From: Candidatus Bathyarchaeum sp.
GTDB lineage: Archaea > Thermoproteota > Bathyarchaeia > Bathyarchaeales > Bathyarchaeaceae
Direction of reading: 5' to 3'
Length of the DNA stretch: 64,000 bases
Assembly: GCA_026014565.1 (NCBI GenBank)
Contig: JAOZIB010000026.1
Coordinates: forward strand, 13,829-77,828
Shown here in pieces: positions 1 to 22,401 of the stretch (within the stretch, counting starts at the first letter, position 1; each line of letters opens with the position of its first letter). Under the pieces are notes generated by a model. It had not been told where the DNA came from and did not search any database. It saw only the letters and a program-made list of their open reading frames with translations. The position numbers and the translations under genes are program-made.

Positions 1-998
1 GCGTTACTCACTGCATCAAAAATGGGAACCCATCCACTGTTTGCTAAATGCAACGAAGAGTATGACTTTATTGGTTCTTTAATCAAATACAAGGCAGGAA
101 CAATGTCTCGGATGTCGCCACCAATTTTTAGCAGACCAAGGTTGAGTCCACGTTTTTTTAATGCTCCAGCAACTCCAGTAACTATGAAGGTTTTACCTGA
201 CCCACTACCAGTTGCTGTCGTAAACAAAAGGACAGGAACTTGTGAAGGCCTTGGCAAGTTTTGTTCAGGATGAAGATTTGTTGATACGCCAATTTCATTG
301 CTAACCGTTTGTATCAATTGTGAATTGGCAGCTTTTATTTCTTGGAAGTCTTCAGATGACAAATCCAATGACTTCATGATGCTGTTAATAATAACAGGGT
401 TTTCATCCAACAAACCGTGAGTTAAAATGCCAACCACATTGCCTTTTTTGTTGCTGAATCCTGACGTAAAATCTTGTGGATTATTTCGGTAATTAAGCCG
501 CTGAATGTGAGAAACAATAATGGGTCTTGCGTTTTTGCCAGGAACGATTTTGCCGTACGTGTGACAGTGAAAACCAGAAACTGTTTCTCCGATGACATCA
601 GTCATGAAACTTTTTCCAATAACAGTAGCTTTCACACGGTCAGTGCAAATCAAGGGCTGAAATTCTACATCAATCAAGCCAAGCCCTTCTCGCATGATGG
701 GGGTAGATGACAAGCGTCCAATGTCGGTTGCATTAGAAAGTATCTGAAAACCTGAACATATACCCAAAACAAACTTATCCGAATCAGCCATTTTAACTAT
801 CTCTTTTTGGAGACGAGAGCTTATGCTTTGAGATTCAACAAGGCTGCCTCCAGGGATTATTAATAAATCAAGAATTTCTGATGCAGGTTTTCCATCAACC
901 ATTGCATCTTCGCGAATTAGGTCAGTTGGTAGGTTTCCGAAGTTTTCAAAGCAAGGTAATGACCCAGAAACATATACTAATCCAATTCGGTGCCGCAA
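1..998 (-). CDS. CobQ/CbiA-family amidotransferase-like protein, partial (3' end runs off the window). A GATase_3-type domain is followed by a P-loop CbiA-like domain.
   Basis: Absent from the ORF track because there is no stop in the window. My minus-strand translation is open from a TTG at 998-996 to position 1. It reads ..RIGLVYVSGSLPCFENFGNLPTDL..LLIIPGGSLVES..FVLGICSGFQIL..SGFHCHTYG.., which is a CobQ-type glutamine amidotransferase pattern with a nucleophile Cys. It continues ..VLLFTTATGSGSGKTFIVTGVAGALKKRGLNLGLLKIGGDIRD, a Walker A / CbiA N-terminus-like segment. The first ATG (MVDGKP) would cut off conserved residues, so the TTG start is a guess. Confidence 0.6.
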   Translation of the reverse strand, partial: MRHRIGLVYVSGSLPCFENFGNLPTDLIREDAMVDGKPASEILDLLIIPGGSLVESQSISSRLQKEIVKMADSDKFVLGICSGFQILSNATDIGRLSSTPIMREGLGLIDVEFQPLICTDRVKATVIGKSFMTDVIGETVSGFHCHTYGKIVPGKNARPIIVSHIQRLNYRNNPQDFTSGFSNKKGNVVGILTHGLLDENPVIINSIMKSLDLSSEDFQEIKAANSQLIQTVSNEIGVSTNLHPEQNLPRPSQVPVLLFTTATGSGSGKTFIVTGVAGALKKRGLNLGLLKIGGDIRDIVPALYLIKEPIKSYSSLHLANSGWVPIFDAVSN

Positions 999-1050
999 GT
1001 TTATCGCCTTTTACGTGTAGGCGAGAAATATGCGAACTCTTATATTTAAG

Positions 1051-1067
1051 TTGGAAGGAGTATCCAT
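1051..1067. promoter_or_regulatory. Operator-like 17-bp inverted repeat TTGGAAGGAGTATCCAT upstream of the hemA-cbiX-cbiC fusion
   Basis: It lies between a TATA-like CTTATATTTA (1038-1047) and the ATG at 1070. It has the same half-sites and spacing as the sites at 22385, 22658 and 29843 (TTGGA-N7-TCCA). Confidence 0.4.
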
Positions 1068-1069
1068 CC

Positions 1070-3430
1070 ATGGAACCGTCTGCTGTTAACAGCCACATCA
1101 TAAACGCAAGGATTACGCACCAAAATTCAGGCATAAGCCTAATTGAAACTGCCGCAGTCAAAGACCTACAAAGAGCCCTAAAGCAGCTTCATGACAATAA
1201 TATCGTTGATGAATGTGTTATACTTCAAACATGTAATCGAACAGAAGCATACATCGTCAGCAAGCACCCAGAAAATGCACCTGAGATTCTAAAAGAAATG
1301 TTACTAGAAAGATGTGAAACAAAAGCAGGAGAAGCAAAAATCGCCATTGAAATTTGTTCAAATCACGACGCTCTAAAACATCTGTTACGTGTTAGTTCAG
1401 GACTAGAATCCATGGTCATAGGGGAAGACCAAATCTTAGGTCAAGTATGGGACGCATACAGGGCAGCAAAGTCTGCAAAAACTGTGGGTCCAGTTCTAAA
1501 AACTGTGTTTACACGAGCAGTTAGTATTGGAAGGCGAGTGAGAAACGAAACAAAAATCAACCGAGGTGCTGTGTCCGTAGGTTCTGTTGCTGTTGAGCTA
1601 GCAGAAACGCTGCTAGGTAGTCTCAATGGAAAAACAGTTTTAATCATGGGCGCAGGAGAAACGGGAACTCTTGTAGCCAAAGCCTTAGCAACATGCGGTC
1701 CCCATGCAATATTCATTGCTAATCGAACATATGAACGGGCAGTAAAGCTTGCGGATGAACTTCAAGGCGAAGTCGTAAAATTTGACAAACTAGAAGATGC
1801 TCTCAAAGATGCCGACGTGGTAATTTGTTCTACTTCTGCACCTCATTATCTGTTGAAAAAGGAACCAGTTTCCAAAATCATGGAACAACGAACCAAAAGA
1901 AAAGAGTTAATGATTATCGATATCTCAAATCCTAGAAACGTAGAAGATTCAGTTCAAGAAATTGACGGAGTTAACCTTTACAACATTGACGACCTTCGAG
2001 GTATATCGAACAAAAACAAAGACAAACGACAAGAAAAGGCAGAAAAGGCTTCAAAAATCGTCCAAGAATCCTTGTTTTTGCTAGAACAAGACCTGAAAGC
2101 CCAGTCAGTAAGCGACATTGTTTCGTTCCTTTTTACTCATGCTGAAGAAATTCGTCAAAGAGAATTAACCAAAGCACAATCCATGTTAGGCGATTTGGAC
2201 CCAAAAAAGAAGGGCGTTATTGACAGTTTAACTTTTGAAATAGTCGAACAAACATTGGTTCCTATCGTGGCAAAATTACGTAACGCAGCGGTCAACGGTG
2301 ACAAACAGATGATAGACGCTGCAACTGAGTTGTTCAAACTAAAACATAAAAACAAGGGTGGAAAAAAATTGAAAAAAACAGTTTTGATTCTTATTGGACA
2401 CGGTAGCAAACTTCCATATAATCGTGAAACTTTAGAGAAACTTGCAGATGTAATCAGAAAAGATTCCAAGTTTGACACAGTGGAAATTGCTTTTATGGTG
2501 AAAAACAAACCAACCATTCCACAAAGCATAGAAAATGCGGTAAAAAATGGTGCCAAAAAAATTGTTTTGATTCCGGCTTTTATTGCCCATGGAGTTCATA
2601 CAAAGGACGAGATTCCTGAAATAATTAAAGCAAAACAAAATGAACTGGGACTGGAAGGCAAAGGAGTGGAAATAATATATGGAGACCCCTTGGGCGCTGA
2701 TGAACGGATAGTAGAAATAATTGAGGATAAAGCTTTGAGTATGCTGGGTCAAGAAACCAATGATGAACAACAGGTTCGAGAAGCCCGTAACCTGAAGGCT
2801 TCAACCAAAATGTACAACACCAGCATAGAAATACTCACCCCCCTCATCAAAGAGGTCATTGAAAATGCTTCAGAAACAGATATTCCTGTAATTGAGCGAG
2901 TGGTTCATACTACTGCAGACCCAGAATTTGCTAAACTTTTAGTCATAAACAAAGATGCCGTAAAAAAGGGTATTGCAGCCATTAAATCGGGAGCAAAAAT
3001 CATAACAGACGTCAAAATGGTTCAAGCAGGAATCAATAAGACCCGGGTTAAACGATTTGGTGGACAGATTCTAACTTATGTTGATGATAAACGTGCCATA
3101 GAAATGGCAAAACAAGAATCGTCCACAAGGTCAGCAGCAGCTATGCGATTAGCAGTAAAAGATGGATTGGATAATTCCGTCATTATTATTGGGAATGCGC
3201 CAACTGCGGCTTTTGAAATTGCCAAAGCAGTAAAACAGGGATTAACTAAACCCGCCTTGATTATTGCAACACCAGTTGGTTATGTAGAGGCTGCTGAATC
3301 GAAAGAAGAAATTGCATCATTACCCATTCCATACATAATAATTCGGGGACCTAAAGGTGGAAGCGCATTAGCAGTCGCGATTTTTAATGCGATACTGGGA
3401 ATGGCAGAGACAGACGCAAACGTAACATAG
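1070..3430 (+). CDS. hemA-cbiX-cbiC: Triple fusion: glutamyl-tRNA reductase (HemA) + small sirohydrochlorin cobaltochelatase (CbiX-S) + cobalt-precorrin-8 methylmutase (CbiC)
   Basis: The track ORF 881..3430 is a single open frame. The likely start is the ATG at 1070 (MEPSAVNSHIIN..), preceded by GGAAGGAG. HemA: ILQTCNRTEAY (catalytic Cys) and VLIMGAGETG (NADPH site). CbiX-S (about 2370-2750): KTVLILIGHGS..LIPAFIAHGVH. CbiC (about 2800-3430): VVHTTADPEF..IIIGNAPTAAFE..ATPVGYVEAAESKE. Confidence 0.85.
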   Translation: MEPSAVNSHIINARITHQNSGISLIETAAVKDLQRALKQLHDNNIVDECVILQTCNRTEAYIVSKHPENAPEILKEMLLERCETKAGEAKIAIEICSNHDALKHLLRVSSGLESMVIGEDQILGQVWDAYRAAKSAKTVGPVLKTVFTRAVSIGRRVRNETKINRGAVSVGSVAVELAETLLGSLNGKTVLIMGAGETGTLVAKALATCGPHAIFIANRTYERAVKLADELQGEVVKFDKLEDALKDADVVICSTSAPHYLLKKEPVSKIMEQRTKRKELMIIDISNPRNVEDSVQEIDGVNLYNIDDLRGISNKNKDKRQEKAEKASKIVQESLFLLEQDLKAQSVSDIVSFLFTHAEEIRQRELTKAQSMLGDLDPKKKGVIDSLTFEIVEQTLVPIVAKLRNAAVNGDKQMIDAATELFKLKHKNKGGKKLKKTVLILIGHGSKLPYNRETLEKLADVIRKDSKFDTVEIAFMVKNKPTIPQSIENAVKNGAKKIVLIPAFIAHGVHTKDEIPEIIKAKQNELGLEGKGVEIIYGDPLGADERIVEIIEDKALSMLGQETNDEQQVREARNLKASTKMYNTSIEILTPLIKEVIENASETDIPVIERVVHTTADPEFAKLLVINKDAVKKGIAAIKSGAKIITDVKMVQAGINKTRVKRFGGQILTYVDDKRAIEMAKQESSTRSAAAMRLAVKDGLDNSVIIIGNAPTAAFEIAKAVKQGLTKPALIIATPVGYVEAAESKEEIASLPIPYIIIRGPKGGSALAVAIFNAILGMAETDANVT

Positions 3431-10757: not shown

Positions 10758-11534
10758 TCAACTACTCCAGTTTTCATTCATTTCATGATTTTTCATGCTC
10801 GCAACCATTGCTTCATGTTTTTTTATGGTTTCAGCAACTGTAACCTTGGTCGTAGCACCAATCAATTCTCCTAACTTTGTGTGTCCACCGGTGTGCCGAA
10901 CTTTCTTGTCAGGGTCGGTTCCAGAAATAACAATCATATTATCGGTTCCTGTTCCTGTTGCTAGCTTTTCAGGAGAAAGAGAGCTCCGAGCATCCATGTC
11001 TTGAAGGGCGGCTGTTTTCGCTTCAGTTCCAGTTATTATGGTTCGGGCAAGGGCACCATCAGTTAAAGTAACGTTAGTTAACAAAATAATGTTAATAGTT
11101 CCAAGAGTGGTCAAATACTTTCCATCATTTTCAATCCAGTTTGCTGTGTCTACTCCAGACCGTAAAGCATTGCCAACGCCACCAGTGGCTAAACAACAAA
11201 CTTTTCGGTCTTTAAACGATTTTTCACATACTGCCAAATTGTTCATGTTGGCTCCTGTGCTCAAAAAAGTAAGATCATCAGCAGGTAGATTCAAAAGGCT
11301 GGGAAATTTTTCTGCAAAAGAAGCGTAGTCTTTCATTGTATTCATTGACAAGTCCAAAGGCTGGTAATGGTTGGCTACATATCGCACTTCACAGTAGCCA
11401 TCCAAAGTGGAAAGAACACGACGTTTCTTGTTAAAAGAAACAAGTAAAGTGTTTACGTCAACGTTTTGATAATTATGGTAAAGAACTTGTGCCCGCACAT
11501 TTTCCAGTTTTAGTTTAATTTCTTTTTTCTCCAT
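10758..11534 (-). CDS. cbiZ: Adenosylcobinamide amidohydrolase CbiZ
   Basis: RRVLSTLDGY.., CCLATGGVGNALRSG and TINIILLTN..GTEAKTAALQDMD match my recollection of the CbiZ family. It sits beside a BtuFCD-like importer, as in archaeal cobinamide salvage loci. Confidence 0.72.
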   Translation of the reverse strand: MEKKEIKLKLENVRAQVLYHNYQNVDVNTLLVSFNKKRRVLSTLDGYCEVRYVANHYQPLDLSMNTMKDYASFAEKFPSLLNLPADDLTFLSTGANMNNLAVCEKSFKDRKVCCLATGGVGNALRSGVDTANWIENDGKYLTTLGTINIILLTNVTLTDGALARTIITGTEAKTAALQDMDARSSLSPEKLATGTGTDNMIVISGTDPDKKVRHTGGHTKLGELIGATTKVTVAETIKKHEAMVASMKNHEMNENWSS

Positions 11535-11551: not shown

Positions 11552-14500
11552 TTATTTTGACTCTCCTGCTTTTTCAATTAATCCTTCAATATCCAAATAA
11601 ATACGTTGTAACTGATTTTTCATTTCGTCAGCGGCATTCCACAATCCACGATCAATAGCTTCCAAAAACCGTTCAACCATATTTTGAAGCGCATATGGGT
11701 TTACTTCCTTAAACCATTCTTGCATTTTTTTGTCCAGAACATATTTTTCGGCTAGTTTTTCGTACATCCAATCTTCAACAACTTCAACTGTAGCATCCCA
11801 ACCAAATACATAATCAACCGCTCGGGACAGGTCCCCAGCGCCTTGGTATCCGTGACGTTTTTCGCTTTCAATCCATTTGGGGTTTAGAAGACGGGACCGG
11901 AAAATGAATTTTGTTTCTTCATCCGTGTTTCTAAGTTTCACACGGTCAGGGTCAGAGCTGTCCCCACAATAGGAACGTGGAGCTTCACCTTTGAAAGTTT
12001 TAATTGAACAAATCAGGCCCCCATGGATGTCGTACCAGTCGTCTGCGTCTAGTATATCGTATTCGCGGGAGTCCTGATTTTTTACAGTAACATCAATTTT
12101 ACTTAACCGTGACTTGAACTGGTTAGGCACAGATTTGCCATAATTTTTCCGACCATATGCATAACAGCCCCATGTAACGTAGATGTCGCTGAGATCTTTT
12201 TGGGTTTTCCAGTTTTTGGTGTCTACTGCTTCGCTGACTCCAGAGCCGTGAGCCCCGGGTCGGTCGCCAAAGATGCGGTAGCAGGCTTCTTCTTTTGCTT
12301 GTTCTAAACTGATGCCGTGACTTACCCGTTCTTCGATTTCTGCTAAAACATGTTTAGCCAAAAAGTTTTGTTCAGGAGATTCCTTAAGAGTTGCAACCAA
12401 TTCCACTGCTTCGTCAATAAGATTGACAATGTTTGGAAAGGCATCTCGGAACATTCCGCTGATTCGAAGGGTTACATCAACACGGGGACGTTTCAAGGTT
12501 TCAAGAGGAATAACTTCAAGTCCTGTGACTCTGCCGCTGGTTTCTTCCCATACGGGTTTAATGCCCATAAGATAAAGGACTTCAGCTACGTCGTCTCCTT
12601 GAGTTTTCATTGTATCAGTTGCCCAGATTATAATAGCTACATTCTCAGGATATTTTCCTTCTTCCTTCAAATATCGCTTCAACAAAGCATCACCTAAATC
12701 AACTCCAACTTTCCAAGCACCTGAAGAAGGTACTGCACGAGGGTCAACAGAATAAAAATTTCTGCCCGTAGGCAAAATGTCTGCCATACCCCGTGTTGGA
12801 GAACCAGAAGGACCAGATGGGACATACTTGCCGTTGCAGGAACATAAAACGTATTTTAACTCATCAGTAGTAGCAAACAAAGCAGGAACAAGAAAAGATG
12901 AAAGATATGCCAAACATTTTTCGACCTTAGAGTCAGGTTTACCAAGAACACTTTTAGTTAAAACTGGAATGACCATTGTATCGAAGTCAAAAACATGAAA
13001 TTGTTTCACAAGCTCTAAACAAAGATTGTGTACTTCATTTATCACATCACCGTTTGTCTTGCCGTCAGCAAGTAGTTTTCCCCGGTTTGCTAAAAGGTAT
13101 TCATAGTTGTAGCCTTTCATTTCAGCAATTGCTTGCCGCAAAGAAGCAACAGAACCATTACTTAATCGGGTTAACGCAACTAAGAACTCTTCAAGACGAG
13201 AACCTTCAGGAGGTTCACCCAGAATGTGCAAACCATCACGAATCTGAGCATCAGAAAGTTCATTCAAATAATCATGCAAAGTTTCCACAAAAGAGTCAAA
13301 GGCCTCAAAAACAGTTTTTTCATCAATTTTCAAATCATGATCTAGATTGGATTCACAGACTTTGCCCCAAATCAGTTTTTGCATGGTCGGCAGTTTTGCA
13401 GTGTCAGAAGTTTTTGCGTGGTAGTAATCTTTCAATTGAATTTCCAATTTTGCTAGTTCTTCGTACGAGTCAGCGTTGTGCATAACTGGAACTAAATGCT
13501 CAATGATACAACAGTAGCTACGTCGTTTTGCTTGTGTGCCTTCTCCGGGATTGTTTATGATGTAAGGGTAAACATTGGGTAAATCTGAAATTGCTACATC
13601 GGGAAAACAAGAAGCAGAAAGCCCGATAGATTTTCCAGGCAACCATTCTAGAGTGCCATGTTTACCAATATGCAGTATAACATTAGCTTTGAAAACGTCG
13701 CGAATCCAACGGTAATACGCATAATACTGGTGAGAAATAGGAAGGTCTGGACTATGGTAAACACTTGCTGGGTCGTCAAAATAGCCTCTACGGGGTTGGA
13801 GTCCAATGAACACGTTTTTGTTAATTAGCCCAGAAATAAGTAACTGATCATCATAAGTGAAAACAGACCCAGGGGGTTCGTTCCACTGGTTTTCCATTTT
13901 TTCTTGAACATCCATTGGAAGTTCACTAAACCAACTGCCATAGGTTGGAAGAAAAACTTTGGCAGCAGCTCGTTCTGCGAGTTCTTGTGCGCTTGCCCAG
14001 CGGTTGTCGTTTGTTAACCCGTTTATTATTTTGTCGATGATTTCTTTGCCATTTTCAGGTAGGTTTAGTTTGATTCCTGCTTTTTGTAACTCTCGTAAAA
14101 TGTTCCAAACAGAAACCGGTGAATCAAGCCCAAAGGCATGACCAATAAGGTCGTTTCTGGGGGGGTAGTTATGAAAGATTATTGCTACTTTTTTTTCTTC
14201 ATTTGGTATGAATTTCAGTTTAGCCCAGTTTATGGTTAAGCGAACTAGTTTGTCCACTCGTTCAGGAATAGGTTCATACTTGATTATTTTTGTTCCTGTT
14301 GTTGGGTCAACTTCCGAATATTTCATTGCAGCCACAGGCACAGTAATCAGCATACCGTCGAATTCAGGCATTGCAATGTTTGAGGCAATTTCGACCGTGT
14401 GTAGACCTTGTATACTTTCTTGCCAAGCCTTAAGTCGATTTACTGTTAGTACTGCCTTGATAACTGGCACGTCCAGTTTTGTTAATAGTTTGGTTGATTC

Positions 14501-15292
14501 ATCAGAACACGACAAAGTGGACAACGAAAAAGACAAAACACTAATTACAGCGTCAACTAATGCTTTGCCGTTTTTCATGAAATAATTTTCAATAATCCAT
14601 TCTACGCTTTTCACCCCTAAATTGGGGTCTTTGGCGCCACTGAAAAAAACTGCCAGAACATTTACTCCTTTGCTTTCAAGTTTTTCGATGATAAAATCCA
14701 CATAATCTAAATCATTTGCTTGCCATGAAACTTGATGAAACCATAATCCAATTGTTGGTTTACCGTTAACTATTTTTTTTGAAATATATTCGTCAATGGA
14801 AGGCAGTTCAGAAAAATCAGGATGATAAATTCCTTGCCAGGCCAAAGGTGTTGGTGGGTCAAATTCATAGGTTTTTCCTGTAAAACGGTTGGATATGTAC
14901 AAAAATAGGTTTTCAAAATTCTTTTTTCCGCCATAATTGAGGTATTTTAGGATGTTTTGATAATCATTATTTTCAACTGTAGAGGCATTAATGAACTCAG
15001 GGGACGGATTAAGGGAGGAAGATGCAACAAAAACCGGGACGTTTGCTTTTTCAAGGGCAGACAAAAGGTTTTGGTAACAAGGAAGTTGTCCCATCATATG
15101 GACAATAACAAAATGAGAAGCAGTAGCAAACTGAAGTAAATGATCAACATTCTCAAAGTCTTTAGAGTCAGCACCAGTTTGCAGAAAAAATTCCAGAATT
15201 TTTCCGTTTTTTTCATTTATGGAGTTGGCAGCAGCAACAAAAGGTACCGCATCAGTAGGAATGTTTGATATGAAGGCAACCTTTGTTGTCAC
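11552..15292 (-). CDS. cobN: CobN/Mg-chelatase H family large subunit (class I chelatase), paralogue 1
   Basis: 1246 aa. Conserved blocks: IIFHNYPPRND, YHSPDL..HQYYAYYRWIR, HIGKHGTLEWLPGK, GEGTQAKRRSY and NQDSREYDILD. Confidence 0.9.
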   Translation of the reverse strand: MTTKVAFISNIPTDAVPFVAAANSINEKNGKILEFFLQTGADSKDFENVDHLLQFATASHFVIVHMMGQLPCYQNLLSALEKANVPVFVASSSLNPSPEFINASTVENNDYQNILKYLNYGGKKNFENLFLYISNRFTGKTYEFDPPTPLAWQGIYHPDFSELPSIDEYISKKIVNGKPTIGLWFHQVSWQANDLDYVDFIIEKLESKGVNVLAVFFSGAKDPNLGVKSVEWIIENYFMKNGKALVDAVISVLSFSLSTLSCSDESTKLLTKLDVPVIKAVLTVNRLKAWQESIQGLHTVEIASNIAMPEFDGMLITVPVAAMKYSEVDPTTGTKIIKYEPIPERVDKLVRLTINWAKLKFIPNEEKKVAIIFHNYPPRNDLIGHAFGLDSPVSVWNILRELQKAGIKLNLPENGKEIIDKIINGLTNDNRWASAQELAERAAAKVFLPTYGSWFSELPMDVQEKMENQWNEPPGSVFTYDDQLLISGLINKNVFIGLQPRRGYFDDPASVYHSPDLPISHQYYAYYRWIRDVFKANVILHIGKHGTLEWLPGKSIGLSASCFPDVAISDLPNVYPYIINNPGEGTQAKRRSYCCIIEHLVPVMHNADSYEELAKLEIQLKDYYHAKTSDTAKLPTMQKLIWGKVCESNLDHDLKIDEKTVFEAFDSFVETLHDYLNELSDAQIRDGLHILGEPPEGSRLEEFLVALTRLSNGSVASLRQAIAEMKGYNYEYLLANRGKLLADGKTNGDVINEVHNLCLELVKQFHVFDFDTMVIPVLTKSVLGKPDSKVEKCLAYLSSFLVPALFATTDELKYVLCSCNGKYVPSGPSGSPTRGMADILPTGRNFYSVDPRAVPSSGAWKVGVDLGDALLKRYLKEEGKYPENVAIIIWATDTMKTQGDDVAEVLYLMGIKPVWEETSGRVTGLEVIPLETLKRPRVDVTLRISGMFRDAFPNIVNLIDEAVELVATLKESPEQNFLAKHVLAEIEERVSHGISLEQAKEEACYRIFGDRPGAHGSGVSEAVDTKNWKTQKDLSDIYVTWGCYAYGRKNYGKSVPNQFKSRLSKIDVTVKNQDSREYDILDADDWYDIHGGLICSIKTFKGEAPRSYCGDSSDPDRVKLRNTDEETKFIFRSRLLNPKWIESEKRHGYQGAGDLSRAVDYVFGWDATVEVVEDWMYEKLAEKYVLDKKMQEWFKEVNPYALQNMVERFLEAIDRGLWNAADEMKNQLQRIYLDIEGLIEKAGESK

Positions 15293-15314: not shown

Positions 15315-16139
15315 TCAGAGTCTAGTCATAATTTTTGGGGGTAAAATGTTTCCCAAATTTTTGGTTTCTGATTCTATAGGTGTGACTTGGGGCAGGCCAA
15401 CAATTGATTTTGTTACTTTTGATTTAATTCCATATACTGCTTCGATGTTTTCTTCAGTCATGACGGTTTCTGGAGTGCCAACAGAGTAGATTTGACCTTC
15501 TTTTATTAGAACTAATCGGTCAGAGAATCTGCATGCAAGGTTTAGGTCATGTATGGAAATGACTACGGAGCAGTGTTTGCGTTGAGCTAAAGTTCTAAGG
15601 ATGCACAAGATTTCTAGTTGATGGCGAATGTCTAGTGAACTAGTGGGTTCATCCAAAAGTATGATTTCGGGTTGTTGGGCTAATGCACGGGCGATGATAA
15701 CTTTTTGTTGTTCTCCACCGCTTAGTTCGTTAAAGTAACGCATGCCCAAATGAGCGATACCAAGGTAATCTAAGATTTTAGCAACGATTTCTTTGTCGTT
15801 TCTGCCTAGACTCCACTGAACATAGGGCCTTCTTCCCATTAGAACAACATCAAAAACGGTGAAAGGAAAAACGTTCTTAGAACTCTGGGGAACATAGCCC
15901 ATCACTTTAGCTAGTTCTTTGAGTCCGATGTCTGAAATGTCTTTGTTGTCAATTAGTATGGTGTTTTTTTCAGTTTTTAGAATTCGGTTCATGCATTTTA
16001 AGAGGGTACTTTTTCCAGAACCGTTTGGTCCAACAATACCCAATACTTCACCGAATTCTACTTTTAGGTTAAAGTCGTTTAGAACAGGATTTCCAGTGTA
16101 ACTAAACGCCAAATTGTTTATTTCTAAATTCAACCCCAA
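15315..16139 (-). CDS. ABC importer ATPase, FepC/BtuD (iron-siderophore/cobalamin) type
   Basis: Walker A GPNGSGKST, signature LSGGEQQKV, Walker B ILLDEPTSSLD. It overlaps the upstream permease gene. Confidence 0.9.
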   Translation of the reverse strand: MGLNLEINNLAFSYTGNPVLNDFNLKVEFGEVLGIVGPNGSGKSTLLKCMNRILKTEKNTILIDNKDISDIGLKELAKVMGYVPQSSKNVFPFTVFDVVLMGRRPYVQWSLGRNDKEIVAKILDYLGIAHLGMRYFNELSGGEQQKVIIARALAQQPEIILLDEPTSSLDIRHQLEILCILRTLAQRKHCSVVISIHDLNLACRFSDRLVLIKEGQIYSVGTPETVMTEENIEAVYGIKSKVTKSIVGLPQVTPIESETKNLGNILPPKIMTRL

Positions 16140-17206
16140 CTTTGCCTCCTTCTACTTAACAAGATGTAAATGAAGAATGGAACACCCAACAGTGAAGTTA
16201 TTATTCCTACAGGAAACTCCACAGGGGGCATAACAGTTCGTGCTAAGGTGTCTGATGCTAAAAGCAAACAAGAACCAATAACTGTGCAGCACGGTAAAAG
16301 GAATCTGTGGTCACTGCCGATTATCATCCGCGCGAGGTGAGGAGAAATCAAGCAGATGAACCCAATGACCCCAGTAAATGAGATAATAGTTGATGTTGCG
16401 AGAGTTCCTAAAATCATGGAAACCAGCAAAACTCGTTTAGAGTTAACTCCAAGACTGGTTGCTACTTCTTCGCCTAGGCTCATGACGTTTAGGTCCCAAG
16501 ATTGTTTCATCATCAAAAGAATAGAAAACAACACAATAGGAAGAGTAATGAAAACACTATCCCACGAGGCTTTTTGGAAAGAGCCCAAAAGCCAAAAAAC
16601 TACAGCTCGAACAGCTTCGTGTTCGGGAGCCAAGAACTGAATTAATGATAGTAAAGCAGAAAACAAAAATCCGACTGCTACACCGGCCAAAATTACTGTT
16701 TCGGAAGATATTCCACGTATACGGGCAATGCCTAGTACTAACATCATTGCAAGAAAACTGAAAATAAAAGCGTTAATGACAGTCACATAATTGGCGTATT
16801 GTGCCAAAATACCTACACCAAATACTATGGATAAAGCTGCGCCAAAACCTGCAGCTGAAGAAATTCCTAAGATGTAAGAGGAAACCAAAGGGTTGCGGAG
16901 CACGCCTTGCATGACTGCACCAGAAGCAGAAAGCCCTGCACCAGCAATGATTGCCAAGGCAATTCGGGGTAGTCGTAAGTCCATAATAATTATCTGGGTT
17001 ATTGTTGTACACGGGTCAAAATCAAAAGAGGGAAAAATCTTATACATAATAACATTGAAGGCTTCATTAAATCCTGGTGAGCCAGCACCAAGACTAACTG
17101 CAATAACTGAAACTACAACTAAAGTTACTAAAATAGAAAGAATAGCAAGAACCTTGCGGCTCTTGCCTTGAGAATAAAGAGACTCAAGCTCTGCAGCGGA
17201 ACTCAT
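16130..17206 (-). CDS. FecCD/BtuC-family ABC importer permease
   Basis: About 10 TM segments. RLPRIALAIIAGAGLSASGAVMQGVLRNPL and GVIGFICLISPHLAR are FecCD-family hallmarks. Confidence 0.9.
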   Translation of the reverse strand: MSSAAELESLYSQGKSRKVLAILSILVTLVVVSVIAVSLGAGSPGFNEAFNVIMYKIFPSFDFDPCTTITQIIIMDLRLPRIALAIIAGAGLSASGAVMQGVLRNPLVSSYILGISSAAGFGAALSIVFGVGILAQYANYVTVINAFIFSFLAMMLVLGIARIRGISSETVILAGVAVGFLFSALLSLIQFLAPEHEAVRAVVFWLLGSFQKASWDSVFITLPIVLFSILLMMKQSWDLNVMSLGEEVATSLGVNSKRVLLVSMILGTLATSTIISFTGVIGFICLISPHLARMIIGSDHRFLLPCCTVIGSCLLLASDTLARTVMPPVEFPVGIITSLLGVPFFIYILLSRRRQSWG

Positions 17207-20190
17207 GGGTAGAAATAAACTCCTGGTATGTCAGCTCCAAAGAATTTTTCATTAATTTCAGTATTCACGGCAGCGGGATCTATGTCTTCAAACAGGTCAG
17301 GTTGGCACCATTTTGCCCAGCATAGGTATCCAACTATACAGCGTATTCCACCACGGGCAGCCCAATCATAGATGTAGACTTTACCATTTACAACAGCAGA
17401 CACTTCACTTAATTCTGGTCGTTCCATTATCTGTGTTTGCATGTCGATGAAGTCGGCTTCTTCATGATTCACACTTTGAATTGCACGAAGAATAATGTCT
17501 GGGTCCTGTTCGACTACAAACTCGGCACTTAAGACTGGCGCATATTCTGTTTGGTTTTCTGCAATGTTTATTCCACCTGCTTGGTCCAAACCAGGAGTAA
17601 CAAAGGTGTTGTAAGGTGCATACCATTCAAGAAGCACTTTTGGTCGGTCTTCTACGGTGAGGGTTGCAACACGTTCTTTGACAAGATTGTTGTAATATTG
17701 GACGTATTCGATGTATTCATCAGCAGCATCGGGGTCACCTACGATTTTAGCAAGTTTTTGTAGTAGTTTACATGAAAAATCTACTGAAGTTTCATTAGAG
17801 TGAGCTGTTGGTTCGGGGTCCGATGTGTCGCTGATAAAGATGGGAATTCCTGCAGATACAATTTGGTCATACAGTTCTGCATTGTAAGGCAACATTGAAT
17901 CAGCAAAAAGCAAGTCGGGTTCTGCTTCTAGTACCAATTCAACATTTGGCAAGTACGAATTATCGCCAACAACGGGTATGTCAAGAACAGACGGTGGCAA
18001 AGTTGAAGCTTCATCTCGGCCAACGATTCTGTCTTCATATCCTAGTGCGGAAAGCATCTCTGTTAAACCAGAGTTGATGCTGACAATGCGCTCCACAGGC
18101 AGATTAATGGTTAATTCATTCTCGTTTCCATCAGTAACGGTAACAATTTCAGGGTAGGCGTAGACTTGTTGAAGTTCTTCATCAAAGAACAACTGATTCA
18201 TTTCTTCATGAATAGCAGCAGGGTCAATGTCTGCAAACAGGCTAGGATTGAACCATTTTGCCCAATACATCAAACCGATTGGGTATCGAAGTCCCTGGAA
18301 GACTACGGAAGCATAAATGTAAACGCGGTCATCTGAAACAGCAGTTGTTCCACTTAACCCTGGGCGAGAGAGTAGCTCTTCTCGTAGAATTTGCATTCCA
18401 GTAAAGTTGCTACCAGAACTTGCCATTCTGATGATTACTTCAGGGTCTTGCTCCGTTACGTATTCAGGACTTAATGTTGGTGAAGAATCATCAGAGTGCC
18501 CAGAAGCAATGTTTATTCCTCCAGCTTTAAGGAGGATCTCATGACTGGAACTGCCTTCAGCAAAACTTAGCCAGTCTTCGCTCCATTCAATGAAAACTTT
18601 GGGTTTTTCACTTTCGTCAAGAGATTCAGTGCGGTCAAGTACCAAGTTTTCATATTCTTCCATAAAATCAATTATGGTATCTGCATTTTCAGAGTTTTCT
18701 AAAATGTTACCTAGATAGGTGACCATTTCAGGCAATCGAGTAAAGTTGCTGGAAGATTCCATGATGACGGGTATACCAGCGCTTCGGATGGTAGCTAGTT
18801 CTTCTGTTTTGTATGAGAGCATTGTATCGGCAACTAACAGGTCAGGCTCTAATTCGAGAATCATTTCAACATTGGGAGTGTATGAACTCCCACCTACGAC
18901 TGTTGCATCCACAATCGATTCAGGGAAAAGAGAGTTTTCGTCTCGTCCAATTATGCGGTCGTCTCCACCGAGGGCACATAAAAGTTCGGTTAATCCAGGG
19001 TTCATACAAACTATTGATTCAACTGGAAGAGCTATCTCAACTTCGTTTCCTTTACCATCTACAACAGTAATGGTTTCGGGTTCAGGTTCATTCGGCTCGC
19101 TTGGCTCTGAAGTTTCATCAGGGTAAACGAATACGCCTGACACGCTGGTTCCAAAGAATTTGTGAACATATTCTTCATGCACTGCAACAGGGTCGATGTC
19201 ATCAAACAGGTCAGGATGGAACCACTTAGCCAGGTACAGCAAGCCGATTGGTCGACGCCCAACTAGGGCAGTGTTTTTGATGATGTAGACTTCTTCATTT
19301 TGCACGGCATCAGTGTCAACCAGTGCCTCGCGGGTTAGTATCCCTTCTCTTAGGGCTTGGAAGTCTTCTAGTTCTTCGCCATCGTAAAAAGTCAGCATAC
19401 GAACAATCATGTCTGGATTTTCTTCAACTACAAACTCGGCACTTACATCCATAGATGATACGTTCTGGTCACCTGCAATGTTTATTGCTCCAGCAGTGTA
19501 AATCATCTCGGTATAAGAGCCAGTTGCACCACTGCTGTACCAATCCTTGTACCATTCAAAGTATACGGTGGGTTTTTCTTCATCAGTTAGAGAGGACACA
19601 CGCTCAACGATAAGGTCCTCATAATGGGACTCGAAGTCAAGAAACTCATCAGCAGCTTCTTGAGCATCCAAGATCACTGCAAGGTTTTGAATATAATCCT
19701 CACGACGTGGATAAGTTGAACTTTCTTCAAGAACTGCAACACCTGCAGCTTCAAGGGCTGCCCGATTCTCGTCAGAGAGCCGTTGACTGGCGATTACCAA
19801 GTCGGGTTCTAGTTCCAAAATTAATTCTAGACTTGCACTAGAGTCGGTGTCTCCAACAACGGGCAAATCTTTAACATATTGGGGCAAAATTGATTCTTCA
19901 TCAGTAGATAGTTTTACGCGTCCTACAATTTTGTCTTCACAACCTAAGGCGGAAATGAATTCTGCACCAATCATTGCAACGATCCTGTTTACGGGCTTTG
20001 TTATTGTTACTTCAGTGTCAGTAACATCAACCACAGTAACTGTAACTGGGGTTTCAGGCTCATTTGGTTCATCTGATACTTCTGGAGTAAAAAAGACGCT
20101 GTAAGCTCCATAAGAGCCTCCAATAATCACGACCAGAAGGATTACCCCTAAAATTATTTTTTTATTTGTTGTGTTTACAAGTTTACTCAT
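17203..20190 (-). CDS. Membrane-anchored protein with three tandem BtuF/FepB-like (Peripla_BP_2-type) substrate-binding domains
   Basis: N-terminal TM anchor (IILGVILLVVIIGG). There are three units of about 310 aa (aa 48-357, 372-680, 681-995). Each starts ..TV(V/T)D..E(V/L)(T/E)I..PV(N/E)RIV....G..E.L.ALG.(E/D)D(K/R)I(V/I)GR and ends ..W(A/L)KWF(H/N/C)P(D/S)LF.DIDP.A(V/I). An acidic Pro/Glu linker (SEPSEPNEPEPE) joins units 1 and 2. Confidence 0.85.
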   Translation of the reverse strand: MSKLVNTTNKKIILGVILLVVIIGGSYGAYSVFFTPEVSDEPNEPETPVTVTVVDVTDTEVTITKPVNRIVAMIGAEFISALGCEDKIVGRVKLSTDEESILPQYVKDLPVVGDTDSSASLELILELEPDLVIASQRLSDENRAALEAAGVAVLEESSTYPRREDYIQNLAVILDAQEAADEFLDFESHYEDLIVERVSSLTDEEKPTVYFEWYKDWYSSGATGSYTEMIYTAGAINIAGDQNVSSMDVSAEFVVEENPDMIVRMLTFYDGEELEDFQALREGILTREALVDTDAVQNEEVYIIKNTALVGRRPIGLLYLAKWFHPDLFDDIDPVAVHEEYVHKFFGTSVSGVFVYPDETSEPSEPNEPEPETITVVDGKGNEVEIALPVESIVCMNPGLTELLCALGGDDRIIGRDENSLFPESIVDATVVGGSSYTPNVEMILELEPDLLVADTMLSYKTEELATIRSAGIPVIMESSSNFTRLPEMVTYLGNILENSENADTIIDFMEEYENLVLDRTESLDESEKPKVFIEWSEDWLSFAEGSSSHEILLKAGGINIASGHSDDSSPTLSPEYVTEQDPEVIIRMASSGSNFTGMQILREELLSRPGLSGTTAVSDDRVYIYASVVFQGLRYPIGLMYWAKWFNPSLFADIDPAAIHEEMNQLFFDEELQQVYAYPEIVTVTDGNENELTINLPVERIVSINSGLTEMLSALGYEDRIVGRDEASTLPPSVLDIPVVGDNSYLPNVELVLEAEPDLLFADSMLPYNAELYDQIVSAGIPIFISDTSDPEPTAHSNETSVDFSCKLLQKLAKIVGDPDAADEYIEYVQYYNNLVKERVATLTVEDRPKVLLEWYAPYNTFVTPGLDQAGGINIAENQTEYAPVLSAEFVVEQDPDIILRAIQSVNHEEADFIDMQTQIMERPELSEVSAVVNGKVYIYDWAARGGIRCIVGYLCWAKWCQPDLFEDIDPAAVNTEINEKFFGADIPGVYFYP

Positions 20191-22241
20191 GCATTTTCAC
20201 ATCCAAAATTTGTTTTCATCATTGCATAATTTTGAGGCAAATGGCTACGAACCGCAGAAGCAAGAGGCGCTGCGCTCAAGTCTTCTAAACGTAGATATTT
20301 TCCACCCATCTCTGAACAGATTTGGTTTACCAAACCAAACGAAATGAAATCCCGTTCAGTATCAATGGCGATGGATTTGATTCCAGCCGATTTAATGGCA
20401 CGGGCTATGGTTTTTGCTTCTTCGATTGGATCACCATCATACATGTTGACGTTTGCCCGACCATCAGAAACCAAAGTTAAAAGAGGAATGGCTTCTTTGT
20501 CCCGTCGCATACACTCACGGATTGTATCCAATCCAGACTTTAACCCATGAGCAAGAGGAGTTCGTCCACCAGTAGGAAGTTTTGCCAAGCATTTTTGGGC
20601 TAACTCCACGCTGCTAGTTGGAGGCAAAATTACCTCTGCCTTGTTTTTCCGAAAAGCAATCATTCCAACCCGGTCACGACGCTGATACGCATCAATTAGA
20701 AGGGATAAAATGGCACCCTTAGTTGCAGTCATGCGCTCTTGGGCAGCCATTGAGCCACTGGCATCAACAACAAACATGATTAAATTGCCCATTTTCGTTT
20801 CTCGAACTTTCTGGCGCAGGTCAGATTTTTCGATAAGTAACGCGTTTTGGCCGTTAGATTCTTCTCGTCTTCTGTTTTGAAAAGGAGCTGCAGCCCGCAA
20901 AGTAGCATCAAAAGCAAGGTCAGTAACTTTTCCTTTAGGAACAGCACTAGAAACATAACGTCCAGTTTTGGAGTTAGTTCTAGTTTTTGACCTTCGTCCA
21001 GAGCCAGTGCGTTGCATCTGGTCCAAAACTGGATTTTCTAAAGGTTTAACTTTTTCTGGAGAATCAGCCTCAAAAACTTGTTCATGTTGGGGATCTGAGT
21101 TTTCCTGGGGGTTATCTGATGAAGAATCATCAGGAGGGGAATTACTCTCAGAAGGAGATTGCTGTTCCTGATTTTGTTTCCATTTATCGATGTTGTCTTG
21201 AATTTGTTGTTGCTCTTGCTTGGGTTCTTCAAAAGGCTGACGACGAAGACGATGAGGAAGCGCCAATTCTGCAGCTTCACGAACATCTTCTTCAGTTACT
21301 TCAGTTCGTCCTCTAAACGCTGCGATGGTGCATGCAGTCTTATAAATCGTAATATCTGCACGGTGCCCATCAACACCAAAGTCCACACAGATTTGAGTGA
21401 TTAAATCAAGCATTTCATCACTTAACTTAACTTTAGGCAAAAGGTCGGTTGCATCAACTATCTTTTTACGCATTTTTTCTTGTTCTTCATGACGACTGTC
21501 AACAAACCCTTGAGGGTCAGATTCAAAGGCAACACGTCTTCGAACAATTTCTGCTCGGGCTTCTCGGTATGGGATGCCTTTAACTTCAACTGTTAATCCA
21601 AAACGGTCCAAGAGTTGAGGACGAAGATCCCCTTCTTCAGGGTTCATGGTGCCGACTAGTACAAAATTGGATGGGTGACTGAATGAAACCCCTTCCCGTT
21701 CAACAAAGTTTATGCTCATTGCAGCAGCATCTAGCAAAACGTCAACTAGGTGGTCGTCTAGCAGGTTTACTTCATCAATATAGAGGATGTTTCGGTTTGC
21801 TTCTGCTAAAAGTCCGGGCTCGAAATGTTTTTCACCTGTTTTGATTGCTTTTTCTAGGTCGATTGTACCTACTAAGCGGTCTTCGGTTGCACCAATAGGC
21901 AAATCAACTACAGAAACAGACTGTTTTGCAACAGAGATTTTTTTTCCTTTTTCTTGTTTGGTGCTACAGGTATCGCACATTTCTTTTTGGTTGATTGGGT
22001 CACAGTGGAAAGGACAATCAGCAACTACATCTACTTCGGGCAGAAGATGAGCAAGAGCGCGTACTGCCATTGATTTTCCAGTTCCTTTTTCTCCTCTTAG
22101 TAGAACTCCCCCGATTTTTGGGTTTATGACATTAAGGATTAGAGCCATTTTCATGGTGTCTTGTCCAACGATAGCAGAGAATGGGTAAACTGTTTTTGTT
22201 CTCCAGCGCATTAGTATGCTTCCTTTTTGTTTTCTGGACAT
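20187..22241 (-). CDS. ChlI/ChlD-type chelatase ATPase: intact AAA+ module + acidic/Gln-Pro linker + vWA (MIDAS) domain in one polypeptide
   Basis: PFSAIVGQD.MK, Walker A GEKGTGKS, Walker B ILYIDEVNLLDDHLVD and NPEEGDLRPQLLDRFGL are ChlI/BchI-like. A long acidic linker follows. The vWA domain has VVDASGSM and LVSDGRANV. There is a 4-Cys insertion CPFHC-x12-CDTC. ATGA overlap with the downstream binding-protein gene. Confidence 0.85.
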   Translation of the reverse strand: MSRKQKGSILMRWRTKTVYPFSAIVGQDTMKMALILNVINPKIGGVLLRGEKGTGKSMAVRALAHLLPEVDVVADCPFHCDPINQKEMCDTCSTKQEKGKKISVAKQSVSVVDLPIGATEDRLVGTIDLEKAIKTGEKHFEPGLLAEANRNILYIDEVNLLDDHLVDVLLDAAAMSINFVEREGVSFSHPSNFVLVGTMNPEEGDLRPQLLDRFGLTVEVKGIPYREARAEIVRRRVAFESDPQGFVDSRHEEQEKMRKKIVDATDLLPKVKLSDEMLDLITQICVDFGVDGHRADITIYKTACTIAAFRGRTEVTEEDVREAAELALPHRLRRQPFEEPKQEQQQIQDNIDKWKQNQEQQSPSESNSPPDDSSSDNPQENSDPQHEQVFEADSPEKVKPLENPVLDQMQRTGSGRRSKTRTNSKTGRYVSSAVPKGKVTDLAFDATLRAAAPFQNRRREESNGQNALLIEKSDLRQKVRETKMGNLIMFVVDASGSMAAQERMTATKGAILSLLIDAYQRRDRVGMIAFRKNKAEVILPPTSSVELAQKCLAKLPTGGRTPLAHGLKSGLDTIRECMRRDKEAIPLLTLVSDGRANVNMYDGDPIEEAKTIARAIKSAGIKSIAIDTERDFISFGLVNQICSEMGGKYLRLEDLSAAPLASAVRSHLPQNYAMMKTNFGCENA

Positions 22242-22384: not shown

Positions 22385-22401
22385 TTGGATGGGTTATCCA
22401 A
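22385..22401. promoter_or_regulatory. Operator-like 17-bp palindrome TTGGATGGGTTATCCAA upstream of the chlID-led operon
   Basis: Perfect TTGGAT/ATCCAA inverted repeat with a 5-nt spacer. It lies just promoter-distal of the start codon (22241) and downstream, in gene orientation, of a TTTTATAAA TATA-like box at about 22410-22418. Confidence 0.5.

Follow-up and report, generated by a model that had tools for sequence, protein, structure and literature searches.

Three tandem cluster A binding domains on one membrane anchor: a candidate multi-site receptor for a type II ABC importer in Candidatus Bathyarchaeum

The stretch of DNA analysed here (the window, 64,000 nucleotides of contig JAOZIB010000026.1 of Candidatus Bathyarchaeum sp., assembly GCA_026014565.1, positions 13,829 to 77,828 of the forward strand; positions below are those of the window unless another contig or locus is named) contains an open reading frame (ORF) at 17203-20190 on the minus strand that is open and codes for a protein of 995 residues, composed of an N-terminal transmembrane helix followed by three complete Peripla_BP_2 (cluster A) domains. 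The best supported reading of this protein is that its three binding sites differ in specificity and supply a single importer, given that the docking glutamates are present in all units, the corresponding arginines are present in the permease, the units carry type-specific residues and sister genomes encode the same unit types as separate substrate-binding proteins (SBPs). The gene product would then serve the neighbouring ATP-binding cassette (ABC) importer, of type II (BtuCD/FecCD class), as a receptor at the cell surface, with the single N-terminal helix tethering three different cluster A domains outside the cell, unit 1 on flexible acidic tethers and units 2 and 3 as a rigid pair. Each domain would capture its own ligand and dock in turn on the FecCD dimer through two conserved glutamates, and the domains would compete for one translocator, as the tandem substrate-binding domains (SBDs) of GlnPQ do. 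The likeliest cargo would be corrinoids, their precursors or their analogues, salvaged from neighbours and then processed by CbiZ and the CobN/ChlID chelatase. To this reading as a whole, a three-domain surface receptor of distinct units that dock in turn and feed corrinoid-type cargo to the adjacent type II importer, a probability of about 0.68 is given. The parts of the protein are the following.

20089 to 20190, minus strand: N-terminal cytoplasmic tail (with KK) and single transmembrane anchor helix, residues 1-34 (AlphaFold2 (AF2) helix 8-34; anchors of paralogues P0018, P0020 and P0032).
20050 to 20088, minus strand: acidic Pro/Glu-rich tether from the anchor to unit 1, residues 35-47 (predicted local distance difference test score, pLDDT, <50 at residues 27-46).
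19120 to 20049, minus strand: unit 1, residues 48-357, complete cluster A binding domain, type 'A', docking Glu E122 and E252 (Pfam, profile, AF2, and a ratio of non-synonymous to synonymous substitution rates, dN/dS, of 0.074).
19078 to 19119, minus strand: flexible acidic linker DETSEPSEPNEPEP, residues 358-371 (pLDDT <50 at residues 360-370).
18151 to 19077, minus strand: unit 2, residues 372-680, complete binding domain, type 'B', docking Glu E442 and E576 (Pfam, profile, dN/dS 0.089).
17206 to 18150, minus strand: unit 3, residues 681-995, complete binding domain, type 'C', docking Glu E751 and E890 (profile, dN/dS 0.098).

A preliminary description of this DNA, made from the letters alone, had claimed an N-terminal transmembrane anchor followed by three collinear units of about 310 residues, and this layout is borne out in full. 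A profile built from the units returns full-length envelopes (profile positions 1-310) at residues 48-357, 372-680 and 681-995, which are exactly the nucleotide ranges that had been proposed (19120-20049, 18151-19077 and 17206-18150), and the start and end blocks said to be common to every unit are present in the unit alignment. Domain parsing and unit-against-unit comparison agree with it: Pfam matches Peripla_BP_2 (PF01497) in three stretches of the protein, with a summed 305.5 bits against a cut-off of 27.5, and pairwise BLASTP places the units at 40-43% identity to one another with E values of 1e-66 to 1e-85, well outside what chance would give. The acidic Pro/Glu-rich linker between units 1 and 2 was found as the 14-mer listed above and the direct abutment of units 2 and 3 as a junction without linker between YAYP and EIVTV. 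The first of these is 2 to 15 residues long across three-domain homologues, while the second lacks a linker in all complete three-domain proteins with the exception of the C41 paralogue, where it measures 1 residue. Relative to BtuF, each unit carries an extra C-terminal segment of about 40 residues; unit 3 bears a type-specific insertion at about residues 788-800, and the protein ends ...GVYFYP, a C-terminal anchor being absent.

The N-terminus reads MSKLVNTTNKK-IILGVILLVVIIGGSYGAY..., with the transmembrane helix predicted at residues 8-34 in the AF2 model and KK before it. A class III (pilin-like) signal and a lipobox were considered and ruled out by inspection of the sequence: given that the hydrophobic stretch is not preceded by G/A at -1 and that Cys is absent, the N-terminus is read as an uncleaved signal anchor. 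The motif KKIILGVILLVVIIGGSYGAY in the anchor region is kept across the multi-domain paralogues. In these proteins the anchor is conserved in sequence and not merely in hydrophobicity, as KK(I/M)(I/V)LG.ILL.V..G.SYG.Y (window 20089-20190, minus strand, and P0018, P0020 and P0032); in most single SBPs of the sister family it reads (A/V)SVYG(A/G)Y. Conservation of this kind may reflect a specific helix-helix contact, perhaps one with the permease. N-glycosylation sequons, counted to test whether the protein lies at the surface, were uninformative, with 6 observed against 5.3 expected and hence no enrichment.

The integrity of the individual units is supported by structure prediction and by selection. 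The AF2 run, which used an alignment of 22 homologues, gave a mean pLDDT of 87 for the whole protein and about 90 per unit, low confidence being restricted to residues 1-14, 27-46 and 360-370. Each unit is predicted, at a pLDDT of about 90, to consist of two lobes and a 22-residue inter-lobe helix (residues 177-198, 500-521 and 820-841), and the predicted models of the units reach Foldseek template modelling (TM) scores of 0.65-0.82 against solved cluster A SBPs. Comparison with the orthologue of B. tardum, a member of the same genus, gave dN/dS values of 0.074, 0.089 and 0.098 for units 1, 2 and 3, which are approximate, dS being high in this comparison, and which indicate purifying selection. 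Given the full-profile match, the confident fold, the dN/dS at or below 0.1 and the retention of the docking glutamates, all three units are intact and none is degenerate. It could nevertheless be supposed that the ORF is an assembly artefact, or a decaying fusion with one working domain, and the preliminary description had named an artificial concatenation and a single intact unit among degenerate ones as the findings that would overturn it. No point in support of either was found, and the chance of either is negligible for two reasons: first, independent assemblies carry the same three-domain ORF, including the closed genome of Candidatus Bathyarchaeum tardum M17C-01 (79% identity), the metagenome-assembled genome (MAG) DYS_7 (70% identity) and further NCBI, JGI, ENA and Logan assemblies (46-99% identity), which rules out an artefact of assembly. 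Second, decay of individual units is contradicted by the profile matches, folds and substitution rates just given.

BtuF docks on BtuC by its glutamates E72 and E202, with R56, R59 and R295 as the matching BtuC arginines. When the units are aligned with BtuF of E. coli, units 1, 2 and 3 all have Glu at the E72 and E202 columns, and the wider family has both residues without exception (79/79 units). Equivalents of R56, R59 and R295 are kept in the adjacent FecCD permease, the gene of which, together with that of the ABC ATPase, lies directly downstream of the SBP gene with overlapping stop and start codons.

16130 to 17206, minus strand: FecCD-type (type II) ABC permease (overlaps the SBP gene by 4 nt).
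15315 to 16139, minus strand: ABC ATPase of the importer (profile matches).

These conserved residues support the view that each unit is competent to dock on the permease. It is possible, on the other hand, that one domain alone delivers ligand to the permease and that the others serve as a capture antenna, a reservoir or a relay that raises the local ligand concentration. The di-domain of units 2 and 3 was modelled with a pLDDT of 91.9 and a predicted TM score (pTM) of 0.86, compared with a pTM of 0.59 for the whole protein, and these two units are therefore predicted to form a rigid pair; such a pair without linker, together with the single anchor, makes equal access of all units to the permease doubtful, and the existence of orphan multi-domain paralogues without a permease of their own would also suit an antenna. 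However, a division of labour of this kind is quite unlikely for three reasons: first, the docking Glu pair is invariant in every unit of the family, whatever its position in the chain (79/79). Second, purifying selection is equally strong on all units. Third, sister genomes encode the same unit types as stand-alone SBPs beside a permease. Delivery by three docking units, rather than by one, is thus preferred, and the proposal of the preliminary description that one importer could be served by three differing binding sites stands as the best reading of these residues, its choice of ligand being considered separately below.

The operon runs in the order ChlI/D-type motor, three-domain SBP, FecCD permease, ABC ATPase, CobN, CbiZ, and anaerobic cbi genes adjoin it within the window. 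Its remaining features are the following.

20187 to 22241, minus strand: fused ChlI/ChlD-type AAA+/VWA chelatase motor, first gene of the operon and sole copy in the genome (profile matches).
11552 to 15292, minus strand: CobN-type chelatase large subunit, cytoplasmic, one of four paralogues in the genome (profile matches).
10758 to 11534, minus strand: CbiZ, adenosylcobinamide amidohydrolase (Pfam).
22385 to 22401, no strand: palindrome TTGGATGGGTTATCCAA upstream of the operon (TTGGAT-N5-ATCCAA).

Further copies of the palindrome lie upstream of the three-domain SBP gene on contig C1 and of three CobN genes outside this operon. In the 1.8-Mb genome 20 Peripla_BP_2 domains were counted, and besides the protein described here it encodes two three-domain SBPs (981 and 980 residues), one two-domain SBP (674 residues) and a close single SBP; 12 binding domains of the close family are set against two close permeases and one close ATPase. 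The multi-domain paralogues elsewhere in the genome are orphans without a permease of their own and probably share the importer of this operon. A multi-domain SBP gene adjoins three of the four CobN genes, that of this operon included: one three-domain paralogue is directly followed by CobN and the two-domain paralogue adjoins a split CobN. Since multi-domain SBP genes adjoin CobN paralogues both in this genome and in relatives, some units could be imagined as docking platforms for the co-encoded CobN, an alternative that the preliminary description had offered. The topology contradicts it: the positive-inside N-terminal anchor would place all three units outside the cell, while no signal peptide or transmembrane segment was found in CobN, its paralogues or ChlID. 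In addition, the residues that serve to dock on the permease are kept in all units, and a role of this kind is extremely doubtful.

In two genomes a CobN is divided between two ORFs, with the break at a similar position in both (G000:C41:79191-82950, minus strand, 739+533 residues, and L015:12380-16138, 616+570 residues); because two different genomes agree in this, the split looks conserved, rather than the result of a frameshift error. Outside the window, the same genome encodes a 932-residue anchored protein (G000:C11:5108-7906, minus strand) of two near-identical modules, each of which has a dockerin/EF-hand-like segment and, behind it, a divergent Peripla_BP_2 domain, and given the near-identity of its modules this protein is a recent internal duplication. 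A gene for a 268-residue S-adenosylmethionine (SAM)-methyltransferase adjoins it, and a homologue of this methyltransferase adjoins the C41 three-domain SBP. Within the window, one listed ORF of 849 residues at 881-3430 on the plus strand holds glutamyl-tRNA reductase (GlutR_N, Shikimate_DH, GlutR_dimer), CbiX and CbiC domains and is a candidate fusion.

The history of the protein can be followed in sister-family loci, which hold domains of the unit 1, unit 2 and unit 3 types as separate single-domain genes at 46-68% identity. One such locus (L019) has the order ChlID, SBP (unit 3 type, 64%), SBP (unit 1 type, 54%), FecCD, ABC, CobN, CbiZ; a second (L018) has the order SBP (unit 1), ChlID, SBP (unit 3), FecCD, ABC, CobN, CbiZ; and in a third (L017) an SBP of the unit 2 type stands beside a second CobN. 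In the genome under study, the nearest stand-alone relative of unit 2 is the single SBP adjoining the second FecCD permease. Given that sister genomes encode the unit types separately in that locus, the presence of several SBPs at the locus of one importer is the older state, and the multi-domain chain arose in the genus Bathyarchaeum when single-domain SBP genes, paralogous to one another and present beforehand at the locus of one permease, were fused. The premise that cluster A proteins occur as single domains, one per importer, is too strict in its second half, multiple SBP genes per locus being common in this family.

In a maximum-likelihood tree of 79 units, units 1, 2 and 3 fall in separate, well-supported clades with their positional orthologues, and the C41 paralogue appears as a recent internal triplication. 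The unit types recur in other orders and combinations: the unit 3 type opens the chain of P0028 and P0036 and takes the second place in several two-domain proteins. The junctions between units are of two kinds, either a flexible acidic linker (mostly 7-17 residues, range 2-48) or no linker at all. A broader proposal would be that shuffled ancient unit types act as 'beads-on-a-string' receptors, with 12 domains supplying one or two type II importers and each chain genetically paired with its own CobN-type paralogue, and that these, with the single ChlID motor, accomplish the uptake and re-metalation (or de-metalation) of foreign tetrapyrroles. This is considered unlikely; if true, such a pathway would give the CobN of an anaerobe a function that is still unexplained.

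Fused proteins of this family are restricted in their distribution. Among 201 sampled Bathyarchaeia genomes, with at most four candidates scored per genome, three-domain frames were seen only in this one and in B. tardum, and a two-domain frame in one more; among 74 loci of a species collection, the multi-domain ORFs (4 triple, 8 double) all come from Bathyarchaeia. Long matches in Methanothrix, Methanocellaceae, Moorella, Ammonifex and others were considered as close-family fusions outside Bathyarchaeia and were rejected, as they are arrays of separate single-domain genes, up to seven in number. In three loci of Methanothrix and Methanocellaceae (L094, L080 and L085), five to seven separate SBP genes adjoin CobN and are the unfused counterpart of the Bathyarchaeum multi-domain proteins. 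Within 6 kb of the 74 family loci, CobN is found at 47/74, FecCD at 44/74, ChlID at 23/74 and CbiZ at 22/74. The multi-domain archaeal homologues that the preliminary description had thought worth seeking are thus present in Bathyarchaeia, and more distant multi-domain families exist as two-domain proteins in Verstraetearchaeota and as independent bacterial three-domain lipoproteins. The bacterial three-domain family (P0130 and P0196-P0201, with one named Chloroflexota MAG) has tandem Peripla_BP_2 domains and near-zero linkers. Other domain combinations were also observed: among relatives of this bacterial family, P0203, P0206 and P0213 have an Oxidored_molyb (PF00174) domain fused to one or two such Peripla_BP_2 domains, and P0037, an ENA metagenome protein of 940 residues, is a fusion in which CbiZ stands between two Peripla_BP_2 domains, which directly links the Peripla_BP_2 binding fold to cobinamide processing. 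None of the PDB chains among the top 50 matches spans more than one unit.

The identity of the ligand has to be approached through gene context and through the binding sites themselves. CbiZ is a marker of corrinoid salvage, and its presence in the operon, together with the cbi genes, the shared palindrome and a precedent in Dehalobacter, points to corrinoids as a plausible cargo. The best NCBIfam match of the permease is the archaeal corrinoid BtuC model, at a score below the cut-off. In Dehalobacter restrictus the same gene set is induced 46-fold under corrinoid starvation (PMC4285132), and B. tardum is reported to be deficient in cobalamin synthesis yet reliant on a corrinoid O-demethylase (PMC10477458). 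With respect to the individual sites, 29 alignment columns are conserved within a unit type and differ between types, against 55 shared columns, and type-specific indels sit in loops aligned with the BtuF pocket, which suggests that the three units differ in ligand specificity.

Several points weigh against a receptor of three units that dock in turn and carry corrinoids. With regard to docking, the rigid pair predicted for units 2 and 3 may hinder the access of one of them to the permease, and exchange among three tethered domains may be slow, type II importers holding their SBP very tightly. With regard to cargo, the units miss every NCBIfam equivalog cut-off, that of BtuF included: the BtuF model NF002894 scores 65.7 bits, summed over the three domains, against a cut-off of 234, and TIGR04281 (haloarchaeal PGF-CTERM-anchored SBP), at 246.5 bits against 325, is not reached either. 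The aromatic corrin pocket of BtuF is formed by Y50, W66, W85, F162, F168 and W196 (PMC5269720), and 1/6 of these aromatics is kept across the units, namely the F162 column (as W), in an alignment of 21-26% identity in which loop columns are uncertain; unit 1 additionally has Tyr at the F168 column, and the remaining pocket columns read E/N/A, D/S/S, S/D/D and S/S/A in units 1/2/3. Furthermore, the nearest solved structures (YiuA, MolA and Ni-His CeuE) bind small metal chelates or oxyanions, not corrinoids, and BtuF is not among the top 50 structural matches of the units. The comparison with BtuF foreseen in the preliminary description therefore gives a divided answer, in that the folds are predicted confidently while the pocket is not BtuF-like, and its suggestion of corrinoid ligands is plausible by context although the score of the BtuF model lies below its cut-off.

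Given these points, it is possible that the architecture and the docking are as described and that the cargo is not a corrinoid, the units instead delivering Co, Ni or Fe chelates for use by CobN/ChlID, or else metallo-tetrapyrroles of foreign origin, heme for example, from which a CobN paralogue would remove the metal, as HmuS does in Bacteroides. This is a live rival because CobN-like proteins of uptake operons can de-chelate: HmuS, the product of an uptake operon, de-chelates heme (PMC12583661), and BtuS1 and BtuS2 provide a second such case (PMC6460266). The closest structures, YiuA with Fe and a catecholate fragment, MolA and Ni-(His)2 CeuE, would fit such a cargo, as would the absence of BtuF from the top matches, the loss of its aromatic pocket and the observation that CobN within 6 kb is commoner than CbiZ (47/74 against 22/74 loci). 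However, CbiZ lies inside the operon with the cbi genes adjacent, the equivalent Dehalobacter operon responds to corrinoid starvation, and the permease is best matched by the corrinoid BtuC model, albeit below its cut-off. Sister loci moreover hold a separate CbiMNQO-like cobalt system adjoining the cluster, and the order of the Foldseek matches may chiefly reflect the shared C-terminal extension and the domain size. A non-corrinoid cargo is on this evidence a minority possibility that deserves serious weight, and corrinoids remain the preferred assignment.

To our knowledge, work on tandem binding domains has so far concerned type I importers alone (GlnPQ). Literature searches found no paper that describes tandem cluster A, BtuF or Peripla_BP_2 domains, and thus none for cluster A proteins of type II importers, and public records name the homologues merely 'ABC transporter substrate-binding protein'. 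In type II importers such as BtuCD-F the binding of the SBP is nearly irreversible; three tethered and competing domains, two of them as a rigid pair, therefore pose a direct question of docking and exchange which this family could answer. The locus also offers a clean, datable case of operon paralogues fusing into one chain, followed by the shuffling of modules. Bathyarchaeia are among the most abundant sediment archaea, and cultured B. tardum needs both methanogens as partners and an O-demethylation that depends on corrinoids; an enlarged salvage receptor of several specificities would contribute to its life on cross-fed cofactors. Finally, the strong linkage of SBP and CobN, seen at 47/74 loci in archaea and Firmicutes, suggests that CobN-type chelatases have an as yet uncharacterised part in salvage.

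Among known systems, the closest functional analogue is GlnPQ of Lactococcus lactis and relatives, an ABC importer with tandem SBD1-SBD2 (PMC8025302). Both have several membrane-tethered SBDs per chain, three in the present case, and the properties of GlnPQ, in which the SBDs differ in specificity and compete for one translocator and in which linker length matters for delivery, are proposed here by analogy. Unlike the present protein, GlnPQ has cluster F SBDs fused to the permease of a type I importer, whereas the units described here belong to cluster A, serve a type II importer and sit on a separate protein with its own transmembrane anchor; one of their junctions has no linker and is predicted to be rigid, and the unit types have been shuffled among paralogues. 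With BtuF of E. coli (BtuCD-F) the units share the Peripla_BP_2 fold, two lobes on one long helix, the docking glutamates E72/E202 with the permease arginines, and a corrinoid-related context; they differ in their 21-26% identity, the missed NCBIfam model, the 1/6 pocket aromatics and the roughly 40 extra C-terminal residues per unit, BtuF being a single soluble domain.

The best matches in sequence and fold are YiuA of Yersinia (PDB 6b2x, 9hrp, 9if3), MolA (3psa) and CeuE of H. pylori (4ls3), with E values of 7e-15 and 7e-20 and a TM score of about 0.78, and a C-terminal AKWFxPxxFADLDP segment is common to YiuA and the units. Unlike the units, however, these are single-domain periplasmic proteins of 19-25% identity that bind Fe-catecholate fragments, oxyanions or Ni-(His)2 and are without a CobN/CbiZ context. 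Operon-2 of Dehalobacter restrictus has the same gene set (a FepBCD/BtuCDE-like transporter, two CbiZ, CobN and Mg-chelatase subunits; PMC4285132), but it is bacterial, and in the description given by that paper its binding proteins have one domain each. Bacterial lipoproteins such as P0198 (Chloroflexota MAG, 979 residues) resemble the protein in their three tandem cluster A domains, near-zero linkers and single membrane anchor, and differ from it in their identity of about 28%, a lipobox anchor in place of a transmembrane helix, and an independent origin. In summary, the protein is a bona fide cluster A SBP in triplicate, and neither a BtuF orthologue nor a GlnPQ-type protein.

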